From: Candidatus Methylomirabilota bacterium
GTDB lineage: Bacteria > Methylomirabilota > Methylomirabilia > Rokubacteriales > CSP1-6
Assembly (NCBI GenBank): GCA_046726415.1
Contig: JBKPAK010000112.1
Location: 2,334 to 66,333, forward strand
Direction of reading: 5' to 3'
DNA: 64,000 nucleotides
In this document: in pieces, positions 2,043 to 34,072 of the stretch
Layout: each line of letters starts with the position of its first letter
Position numbering within the stretch: position 1 is the stretch's first letter
The notes under the pieces: generated by a model
The model's input: the letters and a program-made list of their open reading frames with translations, nothing else
Database searches by the model: none
What the model was told of the DNA's origin: nothing
Program-made: the position numbers and the translations under genes

Positions 2043-4439
<2,397 letters not shown>

Positions 4440-4459
4440 GTGTGTCCCTTCTCGCCCAC

Positions 4460-4846
4460 TTAGAACAGATCCACAGGCTGCAGTTGTCCCGCCGCCGCTT
4501 TCACCAGCGATTCCCGGGACTCGCGCCCGCTGACGCTCTCCACGTCGCCACCCATGTCGCGCACGTAGGCGAGCACATCGTGAAGTTGTTTCTGCATCTC
4601 GACCATCCGGCACCTCATTTTTAGGATGACCTCGACGCCGGCGAGATTCACGCCCATGTCGCGCGTTAAGCGAAGCAACCGCGCGAGATCCTCGACATCC
4701 TCCTGGGAGTACATCCGCGTTCGCCCCACGCTGCGACTGGGCCGCAACAGCCCTTTCTTTTCGTAGAAGCGCAGGGTTTGCGGATGGACCTTGAGCATCT
4801 CGGCCACCACGCCGATCATGTAAAGAGGTCGGTTCCGGTCCGTCAC
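4460..4846 (-). CDS. hspR: MerR-family heat-shock repressor HspR
   Basis: N-terminal HTH ...VAEMLKVHPQTLRFYEKKGLLRPSRSVGRTRMYSQEDVEDL matches HspR family; positioned after dnaK-dnaJ as in classic dnaK operons; 4-nt overlap (ATGA) with upstream dnaJ-like gene. Confidence 0.85.
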   Translation of the reverse strand: MTDRNRPLYMIGVVAEMLKVHPQTLRFYEKKGLLRPSRSVGRTRMYSQEDVEDLARLLRLTRDMGVNLAGVEVILKMRCRMVEMQKQLHDVLAYVRDMGGDVESVSGRESRESLVKAAAGQLQPVDLF

Positions 4847-16351: not shown

Positions 16352-16960
16352 ATGATGATCCAGCCAGCCCTCGCTCCTCGGAGCACCTGCCCCACGCCGC
16401 GGGCGTCCCGCCGTTGTGCTGATGGTCCGGCGGCGCAGCCTGGCGCCGCCGGGGCCCACCTCGCCGAATTGGTCCTCGTCGCCGCTGGGGCCAGCCTCGC
16501 CGAACTGCTGGTCGTCGTCGCCCTCATCGGCATCGTCACCGCGGCCAGCGTCCCGATGTTCCACACCTACGTCCACGGCAGCGCCGTGAAGGCGGGCGCC
16601 GAGGAGTTGGTGACCTTGATGAACCTCGCGCGGGCCCTCGCCATCAAGGAGAACACCCGCGTGTGCGTGAACTGGGATTCTGCGGGCTCGCACCGCGTTC
16701 GCCTCCTGGTCGCTCATGCCAACCCGTGCGCGGCCGCGGCCAACTTCTACGGCGCCCAGGGCCGCGGATTTGACGCGCGGATCGACGCCAGCGGCTGGAT
16801 CACCCTCCAGAACCGCGTGACCGTCACCGCGGCAACGGCCGACGTCGTCTTCACCGCTCTGGGCGTGGCCGCCCCGGGAGGTACGTACACCGTCTCGAGG
16901 AACGGACAGCATCTCAGCGTAGTGGTGGCGCCGTCAGGTCGGGTGAACATCACACCGTGA
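16352..16960 (+). CDS. minor pilin / pseudopilin (GspH/FimT-like) with duplicated prepilin N-terminal motif
   Basis: G|ASLAELLVVVALIGIVTAASVP prepilin motif with Glu5, preceded in-frame by a second copy G|AHLAELVLVAAG (12-codon duplication at 16454-16525); start codon uncertain (ATG 16352 gives an atypically long leader). Confidence 0.6.
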   Translation: MMIQPALAPRSTCPTPRASRRCADGPAAQPGAAGAHLAELVLVAAGASLAELLVVVALIGIVTAASVPMFHTYVHGSAVKAGAEELVTLMNLARALAIKENTRVCVNWDSAGSHRVRLLVAHANPCAAAANFYGAQGRGFDARIDASGWITLQNRVTVTAATADVVFTALGVAAPGGTYTVSRNGQHLSVVVAPSGRVNITP

Positions 16961-18770: not shown

Positions 18771-19844
18771 ATGCTCGCTTCCCTTCGCGACCGATTGCCG
18801 TCCCACCGACCCTCCCAGGCCTTCGGTCTGGATATCGGATCGGCGGCGGTCAAGGTCATCCAGCTCCGCCGGGTCGCTGCGTCATACATGGTCACGCGCT
18901 GCGCCGCCGTCGCCCTTCCCATCGGAGCGGTGGCGGAGGGCACCATCACCGACACGGGGGCGGCGGTGGAGGCGATCCGAACGGCGGTGGGCCGGGCCGG
19001 GATCACCAGCACTCAAGCGACCGTAGGCATCTGCGGGCGCGAGCTGATCATCAAGAAGCTGCAGATTCCCCAAGTCCCCCACAAAGAGCTGAGGGACGCC
19101 ATCCGAATCGAAGCTGAGCACCAGATTCCCTTTGCCGTTGACGAAGTCTTCCTCGACTACCACGTCATCACCCAGCAGAATCGGCTGATCGATCTCACGC
19201 TGGTCGCGGCCAAGAAGTCGAAGGTGATGGAGTACCACACGGTGGTGAGGCAGGCGGGGCTCGATCCGATCGTCGTCGACGTGGATGGGTTCGCCCTCGG
19301 CAACCACCTCGAGGTCAGCGGCGGGGCCGAGAGGGAGCGCATGGCCCTGGTCGACATCGGAGCCACCATGACCAAAGTGGCGATCGTCGCGGGCTCAGTC
19401 ACTCACTTCGTGCGCGACGTGCCGTTTGGCGGAAGTCGGTACACCCACGCCATAGCCACCCGCCTCGGCATTCCGTTCGACCGCGCGGAGGCTCTTAAGA
19501 CGGGCGCCGACCGACGTACCGGTGCCGCCGTGGTGGCCCGGACTTGCCAGGCGATCTCGCGCGACCTGGGGCGCGAGATCCAGCGCACGCTCGACTACCA
19601 CGCCGAGAGCGACGTGACGGCCACGCACGTCGTACGGATCCTGCTGGTCGGGGGCGGGGCGATGCTCGAAGGGTTGGACGAGACCCTCACCTCCACCCTC
19701 GGTCTGCCCGTCCAGATCGCGCGCCCCTTCGACACGCTCGCCGTGGACCCGGCGTGCGCCGACACCATCTCCAGCGTGGGCCCGGCCCTGACCCTGGCGC
19801 TGGGGCTCAGTCTGCGCCGACGCGCCGACAGGGCCAGCGTGTGA
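18771..19844 (+). CDS. pilM: type IV pilus assembly protein PilM (actin-like ATPase fold)
   Basis: FGLDIGSAAVKVIQL..., VDIGATMTKVAIV, LLVGGGAML motifs. Confidence 0.9.
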   Translation: MLASLRDRLPSHRPSQAFGLDIGSAAVKVIQLRRVAASYMVTRCAAVALPIGAVAEGTITDTGAAVEAIRTAVGRAGITSTQATVGICGRELIIKKLQIPQVPHKELRDAIRIEAEHQIPFAVDEVFLDYHVITQQNRLIDLTLVAAKKSKVMEYHTVVRQAGLDPIVVDVDGFALGNHLEVSGGAERERMALVDIGATMTKVAIVAGSVTHFVRDVPFGGSRYTHAIATRLGIPFDRAEALKTGADRRTGAAVVARTCQAISRDLGREIQRTLDYHAESDVTATHVVRILLVGGGAMLEGLDETLTSTLGLPVQIARPFDTLAVDPACADTISSVGPALTLALGLSLRRRADRASV

Positions 19845-20384: not shown

Positions 20385-21023
20385 ATGACCACCTTGCTGG
20401 CACCCCTGCGCAGCGCGGCGGCCGCCCTCAAGCTCGCGTGGGCGGTGCCGTGCTTGGCGGTGATCGGTGCCGGAACCTACCTCGTGGTCCTCTCACCGAT
20501 ACGGGCGCGGATGGCGCTGCTCGAAGTGCATCTGGCCGCCCTGGCGCAAGAGGTCGCCCACGCCCGGGCCGCAGCGCAGCATCTCGCGCGCTACGGACCC
20601 GAGACGATCGAACTGGAGGGACGCCTCAAATCGATTGCCCGGAAGCTCCCAACCGAACGGGAGATCCCGCCCCTCTACCACTCAATGTACGACGCCGCCG
20701 CTTCGACAGGGCTGGCGGTGGCGCTGTTTCAGCCGCGGGACCCGCGGATCCAGGACTACTACATCGAGATCCCGATTGCCGTGACCGCCGAGGGCACGTA
20801 TCACCAGCTCGGAGAGTTCCTCGAGCGCGTCGCCGGGTTCCCGCGCCTGGTCACGGTCAGCACGCTTCGAATGACCGGGCTCGAGCGGCCGGCGGTCTCG
20901 ATGCGCGCCGAGATGACGTTAATCACCTTTGTGTATCGACCGGTGGGCGCCCCGCCACCAACGCCGGCCTCCGCCACCCCTCGCCACCGCTTGGCAGCAG
21001 CCCGCGGCCGGCGAATCCGCTGA
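20385..21023 (+). CDS. pilO: type IV pilus assembly protein PilO
   Basis: TM segment + coiled coil + PilO fold region (IEIPIAVTAEGTYHQLGEFLERVAGFPRLVTVSTLRMT); position between pilN and pilP. Confidence 0.8.
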   Translation: MTTLLAPLRSAAAALKLAWAVPCLAVIGAGTYLVVLSPIRARMALLEVHLAALAQEVAHARAAAQHLARYGPETIELEGRLKSIARKLPTEREIPPLYHSMYDAAASTGLAVALFQPRDPRIQDYYIEIPIAVTAEGTYHQLGEFLERVAGFPRLVTVSTLRMTGLERPAVSMRAEMTLITFVYRPVGAPPPTPASATPRHRLAAARGRRIR

Positions 21024-21030
21024 CGCCATC

Positions 21031-21567
21031 ATGAGTCGCGGTCCGACGACGCGTACCGCGTGGCTCCCTGTCGTCGTTCTGGCTCAAGCCGCCTGCACCG
21101 AGCCGTCCGCCGCCCCCACGACGGCCCTGGTGGCGAAGCCGCCCGAGCAGACCTCGGCGGGCTCTGGCACGTCAGTGATCCCCACCACCGCGGCGCCACC
21201 GAACGCCGCCGCCCCATCCACGAGCCTCACCGGCCAGCCCCTTGCCGCTCTCCCGCCGGAGTACGCCTCGCGGGGCCGACGCGATCCCTTCGAGCCCGTC
21301 CCTCCTCCCGGACCGGAAACGGCAGGGCCAACCGCGCGTCGCCGCTCGGTCATCGCGTCGGCGAAATTGGCGGGCATCGTCCACGGGGTGGATGGACCGC
21401 TGGCCCTGGTCGAAATGCCCGACGGCATCGGCTATGTCCTCAAGCCGGGAGACGCAATCGAGGACGGCCGTCTGATCCAAATCCGCCCAGACTCCGCGCT
21501 CTTCGACATCCCTCCGAAGGCCGGGCTCCTGAGCGAGCGAATCGTTCTCACTCTGGGACAGAGTTGA
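21031..21567 (+). CDS. pilP: type IV pilus assembly lipoprotein PilP
   Basis: Lipoprotein signal MSRGPTTRTAWLPVVVLAQAAC; RRDPFEP motif and C-terminal beta-domain (LAGIVHGVDGPLALVEMPDGIGYVLKPGDAIEDGRLIQI). Confidence 0.8.
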   Translation: MSRGPTTRTAWLPVVVLAQAACTEPSAAPTTALVAKPPEQTSAGSGTSVIPTTAAPPNAAAPSTSLTGQPLAALPPEYASRGRRDPFEPVPPPGPETAGPTARRRSVIASAKLAGIVHGVDGPLALVEMPDGIGYVLKPGDAIEDGRLIQIRPDSALFDIPPKAGLLSERIVLTLGQS

Positions 21568-21608
21568 GTCTCCCCCACCGCTCAGGACAGAGTTGAGTCT
21601 CCCCCACC
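21556..21608 (+). repeat. 29-bp tandem duplication (ggacagagttgagtctcccccacc x2) spanning pilP stop and pilQ start
   Basis: 24-bp exact copies at 21556-21579 and 21585-21608 with similar flanks; copy 1 carries pilP TGA (21565-67), copy 2 carries pilQ TTG start (21593-95). Confidence 0.75.
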
Positions 21609-23425
21609 ACCGGCTCAGGGATGTCCTGGCCCTGGTGCTGATCCTCGCCCCACGCGTTGCCCAGGCGCCGCCCGCCGCTCCTACGCCGGCCGGCAACCTG
21701 TCCGTGCCGGTGAGCCGGGCACCATTCACGCCCTCGGGAAGCTCGCCGGGCCCGCGGCTCTCGTCGGACGCGTCAGCGCCCGAACTCCGCACCGGGGGAC
21801 CGCGATTCATCTCGCTCGACTTCAAGGACGCCGACATCGTGAACGTCATGAGAATCCTGGCCGCAGAGAGCGGCAAGAACATCGTCATGTCCGACGACGT
21901 CAAGGGCAAGATCTCCATCGCGCTGCGCAACGTCCCGTGGGAGCAGGCGCTCGACACGATCCTCGAAGCCAAGGGCCTCGAGAGGATCGAACGCGACGGC
22001 GTCATCAGGATCGTCTCGAGCGAGCAGTTGCTGAAGGAGCGGGAGGCCAAGGCCCGCGCCGAGGAAGCCAAGCGAAAGGCCGAGGTAGAGATACGCGCCA
22101 AGGAAGCCGAGGCGCGGGCCAAGGAGATCGAGGCACAAGCCAAGCAGCAGGAGGCCCAGCGCAAGCGACAGCAGGCGGAGGACGAAGCGAAGGAGACAGC
22201 GGCGCGAGGACCACTCATGGAGGCCACGGTCCGCCTCTATTACGCGGACGCCGACGAAGTCGCAAAGACGCTGCAGGGTCTTCTCGGCATCGGGGCCGAG
22301 GACGCCGCGAGAAAGAGAGATGTCGCCACCGGTCCACCGGTCATTCCCGAGCCGCCATTCTCGGCCCTGTTCGGGCCTCCGCCCGTTCCGCCGCTGCCGG
22401 GACCGGTACCGCCGGAAGTATTCGAGAAGCGGCTCACCATCCGCGCCTATAAACCCACGAACACCCTGTTTCTGCGGCTGTACCAGGCGGACATCGAACG
22501 GATCCGAACGCTCATCCGCGAGTCGATCGACATCCCGGTGCCTCAAGTGAAGATCGAGGCGCGGATGGAGATCCTAGAGCGCAGCGCGCTCGAGCAGATC
22601 GGCGTCCAGTGGGGCGGCTTCGTGGCACAGAACGCCGGCTCGCAAACTCTCGTCGGTCAGGGGTTCAATCCCGGCGACCTCTTTCGAGGCGGAATCCCCG
22701 TCCAGGGCTTGAGCCCGGCAAATACTGCTCTCACTCTCTCCCAGGGGCTTCCGATCAGCGCGCTCACGGGACTCCCCTTGGGCGGCAACATCGTGAACCT
22801 TCCCATCGGCACGCTGCCCACCCAGGGACCGCTCCCCACGACGGGCATCGCCTTCGGCATCGTCGGGACCAACCTCAACGTGAACCTGGCCCTGCAGGCC
22901 CTCGCCGAGCAGGGCAAGACCCGCACCCTCGCTCGTCCCGAGATCGTGACGGTCGAGAACAGCCTGGCCTCGATTGAGCTCGGCGAGGAGATTCCCTATA
23001 CCACGGTCAGCGCCGCGGGAACGCAGATCCAGTTCAAAAAGGCGGCCCTCAAGCTCGACGTGACGCCCACCGTGGTCAAGGAAGTCGATGATAGCAAGAT
23101 CAGGATGGTGGTGATCGTGGAGAACAACTCGCGGGGCGATGTCGTGAATCTCGGAAGCGCCGGCACGCCACCCGCCATCAACACGCGCAAGGCCATCACC
23201 CAAGTCCTGATCAAGGAGGGAGAGCGCCTCGTCATCGGGGGCATTGCTCGAACGGAGGTGCGCAACAACGTCCGCAAGGTGCCGGTGCTCGGCGATATCC
23301 CGATCCTGGGCGCACTCTTTCGGATCTCCGAGAACTTCGAGCAAGGCCGTGAGCTGGTGGTCTTCCTGACCCCTAGCGTGCTGCGCCAGGCGGTGCCGCC
23401 GAAGTCTGTTCATCCTCCCCGCTAG
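21593..23425 (+). CDS. pilQ: type IV pilus secretin PilQ
   Basis: Signal peptide (TTG start) MSLPHHRLRDVLALVLILAPRVAQA; secretin N domains; C-terminal secretin domain ...VPVLGDIPILGALFR...VVFLTPSVL; 60-aa Lys/Glu/Ala-rich coiled-coil insert. Confidence 0.9.
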   Translation: MSLPHHRLRDVLALVLILAPRVAQAPPAAPTPAGNLSVPVSRAPFTPSGSSPGPRLSSDASAPELRTGGPRFISLDFKDADIVNVMRILAAESGKNIVMSDDVKGKISIALRNVPWEQALDTILEAKGLERIERDGVIRIVSSEQLLKEREAKARAEEAKRKAEVEIRAKEAEARAKEIEAQAKQQEAQRKRQQAEDEAKETAARGPLMEATVRLYYADADEVAKTLQGLLGIGAEDAARKRDVATGPPVIPEPPFSALFGPPPVPPLPGPVPPEVFEKRLTIRAYKPTNTLFLRLYQADIERIRTLIRESIDIPVPQVKIEARMEILERSALEQIGVQWGGFVAQNAGSQTLVGQGFNPGDLFRGGIPVQGLSPANTALTLSQGLPISALTGLPLGGNIVNLPIGTLPTQGPLPTTGIAFGIVGTNLNVNLALQALAEQGKTRTLARPEIVTVENSLASIELGEEIPYTTVSAAGTQIQFKKAALKLDVTPTVVKEVDDSKIRMVVIVENNSRGDVVNLGSAGTPPAINTRKAITQVLIKEGERLVIGGIARTEVRNNVRKVPVLGDIPILGALFRISENFEQGRELVVFLTPSVLRQAVPPKSVHPPR

Positions 23426-23480
23426 TCGCCGAACGCGCGGCGATCCTGGCGTGCTACTCTAAGCTTCGGCGGTCACTCCG

Positions 23481-24575
23481 ATGGTCATTCCTGTTCGCCT
23501 GGGCTCGCAGTCCTATACGATCGTCGTGGAGCGCGGGGCTCTGCCCCGCCTCGCCGAGCATCTGCGCGCTCTCCGCGTGGGTCGGCGCGTGGCCCTCGTG
23601 AGCTCGCCTCAAATTATCCGGCTCCACGGCAAGCTGGTCGCCGATCGGCTCCGCGAGGCAGGATTCGAAGTGAGCGTCGCCGAGGTTCCCGACGGCGAGG
23701 CCGCCAAACAGCTTGCGGTGGCCGAACGGTGCTGGGACTCGCTCCTCCAGGCCGGGCTGGATCGCACGTCGACCGTGCTGGCGCTGGGCGGGGGGGCCGT
23801 CGGCGACGTGGCGGGCTTCGTGGCCGCCACCTACATGCGCGGAGTGAACTTCGTGCAGCTTCCCACCACGGTGCTCGCTCAGGTCGATGCCTCCATCGGC
23901 GGCAAGACCGCCATCGACCATCCGAAGGCCAAGAATCTGATCGGCGCTTTCCATCAGCCGCGCCTCGTCGTGGTGGATCCCCTGACCATCGACACCTTGC
24001 CCGGGCGTGATTTCCGCTCCGGACTGGCTGAGGTCGTCAAGCACGGCGCGGTGCTGGACGCCTCCTACTTCGCGCTCCTGGAGCGCGAGACGGCATCCAT
24101 CCTCGCGCGTGATCCAGCCATTCTGGAGGACGTCATCGGCGGGTCGTGCCGTCTCAAGGCCGGCGTCGTCGAGCGCGACGAGCGCGAATCCGACCTCCGC
24201 GCGGTGCTGAATTACGGACACACGCTCGGGCACGCCCTCGAAGCCTCCAGCGGCTATGCACGCTGGACGCATGGCGAGGCGGTGGCGCTCGGGATGGTGG
24301 GGGAAGCGCGTCTGGCCCGACGGCGCGGCTTGGCTTCCGACGAGACGGTGGCTCGCCAGGAGCGATTGCTGGAGGCACTGGGCTTGCCGGTCCGCGCACC
24401 GGGCATCGCTGTGGACACCGTCATGGAAGCGATGAGCCACGACAAAAAGGCCAAGGATGGGCGGATTCCCTTCGTGCTCGCGCCGGAGATTGGCCGCTTT
24501 CGAGTTGAGTACGACATCCCGCGCGACGACGTGCGGGCCGTGCTCGAGGGGCTCCAGACGCCCGCCGCGCATTGA
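23481..24575 (+). CDS. aroB: 3-dehydroquinate synthase
   Basis: GGGAVGDVAGFVAATYMRGVNFVQLPTTVLAQVDASIGGKTAIDHP, HGEAVALG motifs; classic pilQ-aroB synteny. Confidence 0.93.
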   Translation: MVIPVRLGSQSYTIVVERGALPRLAEHLRALRVGRRVALVSSPQIIRLHGKLVADRLREAGFEVSVAEVPDGEAAKQLAVAERCWDSLLQAGLDRTSTVLALGGGAVGDVAGFVAATYMRGVNFVQLPTTVLAQVDASIGGKTAIDHPKAKNLIGAFHQPRLVVVDPLTIDTLPGRDFRSGLAEVVKHGAVLDASYFALLERETASILARDPAILEDVIGGSCRLKAGVVERDERESDLRAVLNYGHTLGHALEASSGYARWTHGEAVALGMVGEARLARRRGLASDETVARQERLLEALGLPVRAPGIAVDTVMEAMSHDKKAKDGRIPFVLAPEIGRFRVEYDIPRDDVRAVLEGLQTPAAH

Positions 24576-25260: not shown

Positions 25261-25826
25261 ATGCAGGTTTCCACCGCGGAGTTCAAGAAAGGGTTGCGGA
25301 TCGTCTTCGACGGGCAGCCCTACGCCATCGTCGACTTCCAGCATGTCAAGCCCGGCAAAGGCGGGGCCTTCGTGCGGACCAAGCTCAAGCACATGAAGCA
25401 GGGCCGGGTCATTGACAACACCTTTCGCTCGGGTGAGAAGGTCGAGCTGGTCGACTTCGAAGAGAAGCACATGCAGTATCTCTATCGGGACGATCGCTAT
25501 CACTTCATGGATACGGAGAGCTACGAGCAGGTCTCGCTGTCCGCGGACGAAGTGAGCGACGCCCGCGACTACTTGAAGGAGAACACCGAGGTCGACCTGC
25601 TGTACATCGATGGTGCGCCGGCGGCCATCGAGCTACCGAACTTCGTGGAGCTGGCGATCAGTAAGACGGATCCCGGCGTGCGGGGCGACACCGCCCAGGG
25701 AGGCAGCAAACCGGCCACCCTCGAAACGGGTGCGATCGTCCACGTTCCCCTCTTTCTCAACGAAGGCGATGTCGTCAGGGTCGATACTCGGACCGGCGAG
25801 TACCTCGGCCGCGTCAGCAGCGCGTG

Positions 25827-25827
<1 letters not shown>
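25261..25827 (+). CDS. efp: elongation factor P
   Basis: [43 protein letters not shown] canonical EF-P with KPGKG loop. Confidence 0.95.
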
Positions 25828-33212: not shown

Positions 33213-33899
33213 GCCTTGCACGTCTACTACGGGGAAATCCACGCCCTCAAGGGCGTAGCCTTCCGCGTGGAGCGCGGCGAGATCGTGGCCCTGCTCGGCA
33301 ACAATGGCGCCGGCAAAACCACGACGCTCAAGACCGTGTCCGGACTGCTGACCCCGAGGACAGGGGGCGTGGCCCTGGAGGGAGAGCAGCTCACCGGCCG
33401 TCCCCCGCACGAGGTCGTCCTGAAGGGGATCGCTCACGTCCCCGAGGGGCGACGGATTTTCAATCGACTGACCGTGCGCGAGAATCTGCTGATGGGCGCC
33501 TATCGCCGGCGCGACACCGGAATCGCCAGCGATTTCGAACGCGCCCTCGCGCTTTTCCCGCGATTGCGCGAACGGCTTGCCCAGATCGCCGGCACCCTCT
33601 CGGGCGGGGAACAGCAGATGCTGGCCATCGCGCGCGCCCTCATGACGAACCCTCGGCTGCTACTCCTGGACGAGCCGAGCATGGGGCTCGCCCCTGTCCT
33701 CGTGGAACAGATATTCCAGACCATCAGTGACATCAACCGCGAGGGCACGACGATCCTGCTCGTCGAGCAGAACGCCGCCATGGCCCTCGCCCTCGCTCAT
33801 CGGGCGTACGTGCTGGAAACCGGCACCGTCATGCTCTCGGGTCCCGCCAGCGCGCTGGCCCAGAACCCCGAGGTCCGGCGCATCTACCTCGGCGAGTAG
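33174..33899 (+). CDS. livF: ABC transporter ATP-binding protein, LivF family
   Basis: LLSVDALHVYYGEIHALKGVAF..., GNNGAGKTTT Walker A; start (TTG 33174) uncertain, a start near 33199-33205 would better match canonical LivF N-termini. Confidence 0.85.
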   Translation: MTGRREQPLLSVDALHVYYGEIHALKGVAFRVERGEIVALLGNNGAGKTTTLKTVSGLLTPRTGGVALEGEQLTGRPPHEVVLKGIAHVPEGRRIFNRLTVRENLLMGAYRRRDTGIASDFERALALFPRLRERLAQIAGTLSGGEQQMLAIARALMTNPRLLLLDEPSMGLAPVLVEQIFQTISDINREGTTILLVEQNAAMALALAHRAYVLETGTVMLSGPASALAQNPEVRRIYLGE

Positions 33900-33900
33900 C

Positions 33901-34049
33901 CGCAGGACGCAGGGTGAGCCACAGGTCGAGGCGAGCTAGGACGCAGGGCGAGCCGCAGGTCGTCGCAGGGCCGGGGCCCCGCCGTCCGAGGCGAGCTAGG
34001 ACGCAGGGCGAGCCGCAGGTCGTCGCGGGGCTGGGGCCCCGCCGTCCGA
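33901..34049. repeat. 60-bp tandem repeat x ~2.5 (units 33930-33989 and 33990-34049, 2 mismatches; partial copy 33901-33929)
   Basis: Read directly; each unit contains a GGGGCCCC palindrome core; intergenic between livF and maoC (translating it yields the repeated peptide RRARTQGEPQVVAG, so the upstream extension of the MaoC ORF was rejected). Confidence 0.85.
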
Positions 34050-34072
34050 GGAGAGTAGGAAAGGAAGACGGG

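Follow-up and report, generated by a model that had tools for sequence, protein, structure and literature searches.

Gene pairs that overlap by 4 nt have their translation coupled by termination-reinitiation, for which in E. coli the final 15 nt of the upstream gene suffice, and spacers of ~20 nt nearly abolish this coupling in both E. coli and Haloferax (PMC10666635). Short open reading frames (ORFs) with a spacing of -4 can also pass ribosomes on to the gene that follows, a role proposed for the mycobacterial MIRUs, which are gene-junction inserts whose internal ORF is coupled at -4 spacing and which disturb expression little (PMC12548453). The junction described here lies between the pilus genes pilP and pilQ, the latter coding for a secretin, in a stretch of 64,000 nt (contig JBKPAK010000112.1; hereafter the window, G+C 67%) from an uncultivated, soil-type member of the Candidatus Rokubacteria (Methylomirabilota). 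At this junction a 4-nt stop/start overlap is present in two copies, which leaves 25 nt between the pilP stop and the pilQ start. A derived, imperfect 29-nt duplication, together with a relay of ribosomes from pilP through a mini-ORF to pilQ, appears to be the best explanation and is considered probable, with appreciable room for doubt.

The duplicated junction and its alleles

The sequence GGACAGAGTTGAGTCTCCCCCACC occurs as an exact 24-mer at 21556-21579 (copy 1) and again at 21585-21608 (copy 2), all 24 positions being identical, with a start-to-start period of 29 nt, and it is found at these two places only in the window. Read from 21540 to 21625 on the plus strand, on which pilP, pilQ and all the features of their junction lie, the order is CTCACTCTG, copy 1, the linker GCTCA (21580-21584), copy 2 and ACCGGCTCAGGGATG. 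From the base composition of the window, ~3.4e-7 repeats of 24 nt within 100 nt would be expected by chance, and the longest short-range direct repeats in 30 shuffled sequences measured 10-14 nt; adjacent head-to-tail copies of this length, a hallmark of short tandem duplications, are far above chance. The repeat was detected by a direct-repeat search and a script, and Tandem Repeats Finder did not report it even at a score of 30. The pilP stop TGA (21565-21567) falls within copy 1, where a TTG (21564-21566) overlaps it, while copy 2 holds the pilQ start TTG (21593-21595) and a TGA (21594-21596), such that the window allele has no NTGA overlap between the two genes, its stop (21565-21567) and start (21593) being 25 nt apart.

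The repeat unit is not perfect. The linker differs from the five nt that follow copy 2 (ACCGG), the in-register match covers 24 of 29 positions, and the perfect XX structure expected from one slippage event is absent. With gaps allowed, the units align as 29 and 33 nt and differ by ACCG. GCTCAGG stands immediately after copy 1 and is met after copy 2 only past four extra nt (ACCG); the five nt of the linker thus recur 4 nt beyond copy 2, and this second GCTCAGG (21612-21618) ends the 33-nt version of the unit. The new junction CCACCGCTCAGGACAG, a 16-mer, is unique in the window. An earlier note on this DNA had described a 29-bp tandem duplication with two exact 24-bp copies at a 29-bp period, copy 1 supplying the pilP stop and copy 2 the pilQ TTG and signal N-terminus. 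The copies, their period and the duplication of the stop/start site all hold, as do the assignments to each copy when the frames are read; the unit itself, at 29 versus 33 nt, is an imperfect one.

Same-species DNA was compared in 14 contigs that are 99.2-99.9% identical to the window. The two-copy junction is identical to that of the window in 12 JGI contigs from 12 samples, and one further contig of 55 kb has the same 26-nt difference between the coordinates of the upstream gene end and the pilQ start, going by its gene calls alone. A single-copy allele is carried by L029 (Logan, SRR26457752) and L030 (JGI 3300060663), both exactly 29 nt shorter and ~99.8% identical otherwise. Their junction reads CTCACTCTGGGACAGAGTTGAGTCTCCCCCACCACCGGCTCAGGG, showing a TTGA overlap and otherwise matching that of the window, and so represents the unduplicated allele, differing by one unit, that accompanies a short tandem duplication. 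Alignment of both to the window places the missing 29 nt at 21556-21584, this placement being ambiguous, as any frame from 21556-21584 through 21580-21608 fits. PilP and PilQ are both unchanged by the insertion and the junction alone differs. The two-copy allele is found on several haplotype backgrounds and is dominant among the sampled contigs, and it is therefore not strongly harmful. The window's species was not recovered among species-representative genomes, the nearest being L012 with 89% PilQ identity, and exact look-up of the window PilQ and of protein P0131 returned no record. A scan of metagenome contigs with the 24-mer gave no match, and a protein scan of metagenome contigs with the PilP C-terminus gave 600 pattern matches with no relatives among them, and hence no extra alleles or closer outgroups.

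The nearest outgroups (L002, L009, L010/L011 and L012) have 72-85% nucleotide identity and 83-90% PilQ protein identity to the window. Their pilP genes and pilQ genes overlap by GTGA in L002, L009 and L010/L011 and by ATGA in L012, and a GTGA overlap is also present in the far more distant L019 (41% PilQ identity). In the outgroups pilP ends in LGQAK, LGQVK or LGPAK before the stop and the PilQ signal peptides are of ~25 residues, while pilP/pilQ spacers of 0-12 nt are found in more distant Methylomirabilota. Because a single-copy allele exists in the same species and NTGA is found in the outgroup lineages, the 4-nt overlap is ancestral and the insertion derived and specific to this species. 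The event lies within ~1% sequence divergence, whichever its polarity.

These comparisons bear out much of what the earlier note had proposed. Alignment of the pilP-pilQ junctions gives the single-copy TTGA in L029 and L030 and NTGA in five outgroup lineages (GTGA or ATGA), in agreement with an ancestral 4-nt overlap. Deletion of 29 nt from the window sequence does restore the TTGA, and this exact allele exists in the two contigs; the suggestion that the duplication is recent agrees with its being polymorphic in a population at least 99.2% identical. The same style of overlap was said to be used elsewhere in the window, and GTGA overlaps are indeed found for pilM/pilN (19841-19844, plus strand), which serves as a comparison junction within the operon, and for efp/accB (25824-25827).

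The L019 record (DASRWT010000041.1) holds a bacterial pilP/pilQ pair and is labelled as a metagenome-assembled genome of Candidatus Nitrosocosmicus, which is archaeal; a binning error is the probable reason for this label of the public record.

A possible relay between pilP and pilQ

The pilP-like gene (21031-21567) codes for 178 residues ending in LTLGQS, as judged from its ORF and from JGI gene calls on identical contigs. The pilQ gene (21593-23425) codes for a secretin of 610 residues with a TTG start, as supported by Pfam domains, gene calls and the homology of outgroup starts. From TTG 21593 the N-terminus reads MSLPHHRLRDVLALVLILAPRVAQA-PP and has a signal-peptide-like shape. The frame is closed upstream by a stop at 21530, and TTG 21593 is the first ATG, GTG or TTG in frame; the start is called at this position in 12 cluster members and is positionally homologous to the overlapping pilQ starts of the outgroups. 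An alternative start at GTG 21635 was rejected, since it leaves MLILAPRVAQA, too short for a signal peptide and stripped of most of the hydrophobic core of the PilQ signal, and since the outgroups start at the overlap. This downstream in-frame GTG had previously been placed at 21632, where a CTG is found.

As the period of 29 nt equals 2 modulo 3, the TTG of copy 1 reads through 10 codons into the TGA of copy 2. The duplication thus makes a putative mini-ORF, MSLPHRSGQS (21564-21596, by three-frame translation), which has the geometry of a relay ORF: at 21564 its TTG shares a 4-nt overlap with the pilP stop, as does its TGA at 21594-21596 with the pilQ TTG. The locus consequently has two TTGA junctions in series, the first fully native upstream and to +16 and the second native from -8 onward. 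Ribosomes finishing pilP could restart at the old overlapping TTG (21564), translate the mini-ORF and stop at the TGA that overlaps the pilQ TTG, where they could restart once more at 21593. With such a chain the translation of pilQ would stay dependent on that of pilP via two termination-reinitiation steps, probably with a lower yield, and would not be uncoupled. Coupling may therefore be relayed through the two TTGA junctions rather than lost. The earlier note had held that the duplication uncoupled pilQ from pilP, a claim which is not supported as stated, for it missed the mini-ORF bounded by two TTGA overlaps that could relay ribosomes.

The predicted anti-Shine-Dalgarno pairing is weak and essentially unchanged between the alleles (-3.9 vs -4.0 kcal/mol, a canonical 16S 3' end being assumed), and because of this and of the TTG start strong independent initiation of pilQ is not expected. 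The weak Shine-Dalgarno, the TTG start and the persistence of the allele are together consistent with continued dependence on upstream translation. A better Shine-Dalgarno site provided by the new junction was considered as an explanation of the allele and rejected, the gain between these two values being negligible. RNA structure hiding or exposing the pilQ start was also considered. In the two-copy allele a 9-bp helix UCCUGAGCG/CGCUCAGGA is predicted, burying positions -12 to -6; the pairing GGGAGAC/GTCTCCC is not conserved in L002, and since the fold energies are also no better than those of shuffled sequences this candidate was rejected. An Rfam scan of the whole window gave no family.

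With regard to its origin, the event is not one clean slippage, because the units are of 29 and 33 nt, a GCTCA linker is present and the units differ by 4 nt. In the ancestral sequence the unit is flanked by near-identical motifs, CTCTGGGA on its 5' side and CTCAGGGA on its 3' side. By one of the two simplest routes, slipping back on GG would give a 33-nt microhomology-mediated duplication (GGACAG...GGCTCA), in frame and adding 11 residues to the PilQ N-terminus, and the two-copy allele would follow once copy 1 had lost ACCG. The other route, a single complex template switch, would fit equally well.

Weighing the alternatives

A number of points weigh against the derived duplication with a relay. 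That ribosomes translate the mini-ORF, and that they reinitiate at either TTG, we infer from the sequence. Upstream of the copy 2 TTG only 8 nt are native, fewer than the 15 nt that suffice in E. coli, and two serial reinitiations multiply their inefficiencies, such that the net effect could be near uncoupling. The folds of the junction RNA are no more stable than those of shuffles (z = 0.43, 1.31 and -0.69), no 33+33 nt intermediate allele was found, the 12 full-length variants in the 90% PilQ cluster all being of 610 residues with the same N-terminus and none of 621, and the direction of change within the population is not clear-cut, the two-copy contig L028 being placed basal by three sites. 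The main rival explanation is that pilQ is plainly uncoupled, the 25-nt spacer abolishing reinitiation and ribosomes initiating afresh at the copy 2 TTG with the aid of an AGGA created by the junction. The reported near abolition of coupling by spacers of ~20 nt in E. coli and Haloferax favours this (PMC10666635), as does the sequence CTCAGGACAGAG-TTG, which has AGGA vs the ancestral GGGA. However, the published spacer experiments shifted the stop upstream without leaving an overlapping start codon, whereas here the pilP stop still has the full ancestral restart site, from which an ORF runs to end on the pilQ start. The predicted anti-Shine-Dalgarno pairing is also weak and hardly changed by the AGGA (-3.9 to -4.0 kcal/mol), and TTG is a poor codon for independent initiation, which counts against uncoupling too; this rival is on balance unlikely, with enough in its favour to be kept in mind. 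The two-copy junction could also be a selected architecture and not a neutral scar. A 33-nt in-frame duplication would have lengthened the PilQ signal by 11 residues, a 4-nt loss would have restored the native N-terminus and made copy 1 a relay ORF, the two-step chain would lower and set the PilQ:PilP ratio, and exact loss via the repeats would let populations move between high and low coupling. Such a scheme is regarded as improbable.

The other alternatives concern the event itself. The single copy is taken here as the retained ancestral allele; with reversed polarity, the ancestor of the population sampled would already have been fixed for the duplication, and L029 and L030 would represent a secondary precise deletion between the 24-nt repeats which regenerated the original sequence. 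A deletion between these direct repeats would take out exactly 29 nt, short tandem duplications are unstable, and L028 keeps the outgroup state at sites 22723, 23230 and 23314, at which all others, including L029 and L030, are derived. Yet L028 (equivalent to window 21091-23588) follows the majority haplotype to ~21655 and its ~17 private SNPs (single-nucleotide polymorphisms) all lie from 21753 onward, none of them in the 660 nt that span pilP and the junction, and several pairs of sites show all four combinations (e.g. 22162 and 22401), which points to recombination or mixed-strain (chimeric) contigs. L028 thus either has a recombination breakpoint in early pilQ or is a chimeric metagenome contig of two strains, and because of its lack of private SNPs at the junction and of these incompatible site pairs it says little on the polarity of the junction. 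L029 and L030 share three private SNPs (22420, 22484 and 22822), because of which the single-copy allele marks a distinct haplotype, and at 22420 they carry the state of the nearest outgroups. As one insertion is also more parsimonious than an insertion with an exact reversion, reversed polarity is doubtful. A reversible copy-number switch, a contingency locus in which one and two copies are toggled and the dosage of the secretin is tuned, might be suspected given that both alleles coexist in very closely related strains, that copy loss via direct repeats would be easy and that pilus genes are classic targets of phase variation. The forward event was, however, no simple slippage (29 vs 33 nt, with a linker) and would not recur readily after loss, and just two allele states were found, each tied to its own SNP haplotype and not mixed within one; a switch of this kind is very improbable. 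Finally, the extra copy, or else its absence, would not be real if it were an artefact of assembly or sequencing. Short tandem repeats can be mis-assembled, most of the two-copy contigs apparently come from one JGI sample series, and L029 and L030 may share one sample. Against this, the two-copy junction with its non-templated-looking linker is identical in 13 assemblies, and two pipelines (JGI and Logan) have each yielded the single-copy allele, which is linked to the three private SNPs. The k-mer length of Logan is 31 and the 24-nt repeat, being shorter, should not collapse. An artefact is accordingly considered extremely unlikely.

The surrounding genes and comparison with known systems

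PilQ homologues place the window in the Candidatus Rokubacteria/Methylomirabilota. Pfam identifies PilM (18771-19844), PilN, PilO (20385-21023) and the secretin (21593-23425), followed by a 3-dehydroquinate synthase, and the gene order is pilM-N-O-P-Q. PilP is the lipoprotein of the type IV pilus alignment complex. The pilP-like protein of the window has no Pfam (PF04351) or NCBIfam family at E<=10, and its orthologue in L002 gives PF04351 at E=0.18, which is under the cut-off. Its best sequence match to a solved structure is Myxococcus PilP (3jc8, E=1.5e-4, residues 52-156), and because of this match and the position of the gene between pilO and pilQ the name pilP is acceptable for 21031-21567. 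The protein has its own signal and cysteine (VVVLAQAAC). In the window and all its strains pilO and the pilP-like gene are two genes in different frames (20385-21567, with pilO ending at 21023 and the pilP ATG at 21031). The four nearest outgroup lineages have PilO and the PilP-like domain joined in a single in-frame ORF of 323-354 codons with a Pro/Ala-rich linker and without a lipoprotein signal (L002 1988-3004, L009 1967-3004, L010 1940-3004 and L012 1913-2884). A fusion or split of pilO and pilP has occurred between close relatives.

PilQ has the domains N0 (PF21305), STN (PF07660), Secretin_N (PF03958) and Secretin (PF00263), all above cut-offs. Neither it nor its closest relatives have an AMIN domain (PF11741), which is present in most other PilQ proteins of the Rokubacteria. 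A long stretch rich in Lys, Glu and Ala, KEREAKARAEEAKRKAEVEIRAKEAEARAKEIEAQAKQQEAQRKRQQAEDEAKE (22020-22200 particularly), separates N0/STN from the main Secretin_N similarity, and part of it was flagged as a 21-nt tandem repeat (22097-22144). An alternative-frame ORF of 178 codons (21060-21596, plus strand) crosses pilP and is closed by the copy 2 TGA. In the single-copy allele it continues directly into pilQ, and a mechanical ORF finder would there give PilQ a spurious Arg-rich N-terminal extension of 168 residues.

Three other tandem repeats are present in the window. A repeat of 84 nt (1808-2011, 2.4 copies, 95% matching) appears to lie between the minus-strand ORFs 1016-1717 and 2043-4613 and has no Rfam match. 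Another of 60 nt (33927-34060, 2.2 copies, 94% matching) sits just past an ORF ending at 33899, and the third is of 36 nt (16444-16522, 2.1 copies, 83% matching).

The two alleles at the pilP/pilQ junction are a natural pair that differ only by a duplicated stop/start overlap, with both proteins unchanged. They offer a clean test of a current dispute in bacterial translation, namely whether coupling requires a direct overlap, can go by relay via a short ORF or withstands a gap of ~25 nt. The locus also illustrates how overlapping gene junctions can be pulled apart without damage to either gene, and is a warning for gene-start predictors, as a duplicated start site can pass for an intergenic spacer. 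Beyond the coupling test, this is a small and ordinary mutation in an uncultivated organism and is of modest interest.

Among described systems, gene pairs overlapping by -4 nt as ATGA, GTGA or TTGA (Huber et al., 2019, PMC6728339; Huber et al., 2023, PMC10666635) have the same junction as the ancestral allele, the five outgroup lineages, pilM/pilN and efp/accB. The window allele differs from these in that its stop and start are 25 nt apart and the overlap motif occurs twice, each time involving the mini-ORF. The MIRUs are alike in being a short insert between operon genes with a small ORF at -4 nt (NTGA) spacing to the downstream start (PMC12548453). They differ in that the insert in the window is a local duplication of the junction and not a dispersed or mobile repeat; the window has the 24-mer nowhere else and the junction 16-mer only once, and the scan of metagenome contigs with the 24-mer gave no match, contrary to what a dispersed mobile repeat family would give. 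The ORF of the MIRUs reportedly also overlaps the stop of the upstream gene.

The upstream ORF of E. coli iraD is similar in coding for a short peptide without a function and in having a stop that overlaps the real gene's start (PMC5574718), whereas the mini-ORF here would be fed by termination of the upstream gene, arose by duplication within the last ~1% divergence and implies no regulator. With microhomology-mediated short tandem duplications the locus shares head-to-tail copies, the near-identical flanks CTCTGGGA/CTCAGGGA and an unduplicated allele; it differs from them in lacking a perfect XX structure, the ACCG difference and the linker needing a second step or a complex event. The mutation is thus of a known kind, being a short and imperfect tandem duplication, as is the junction at which it lies, a -4 overlap, and the putative relay ORF is MIRU-like and of local origin.

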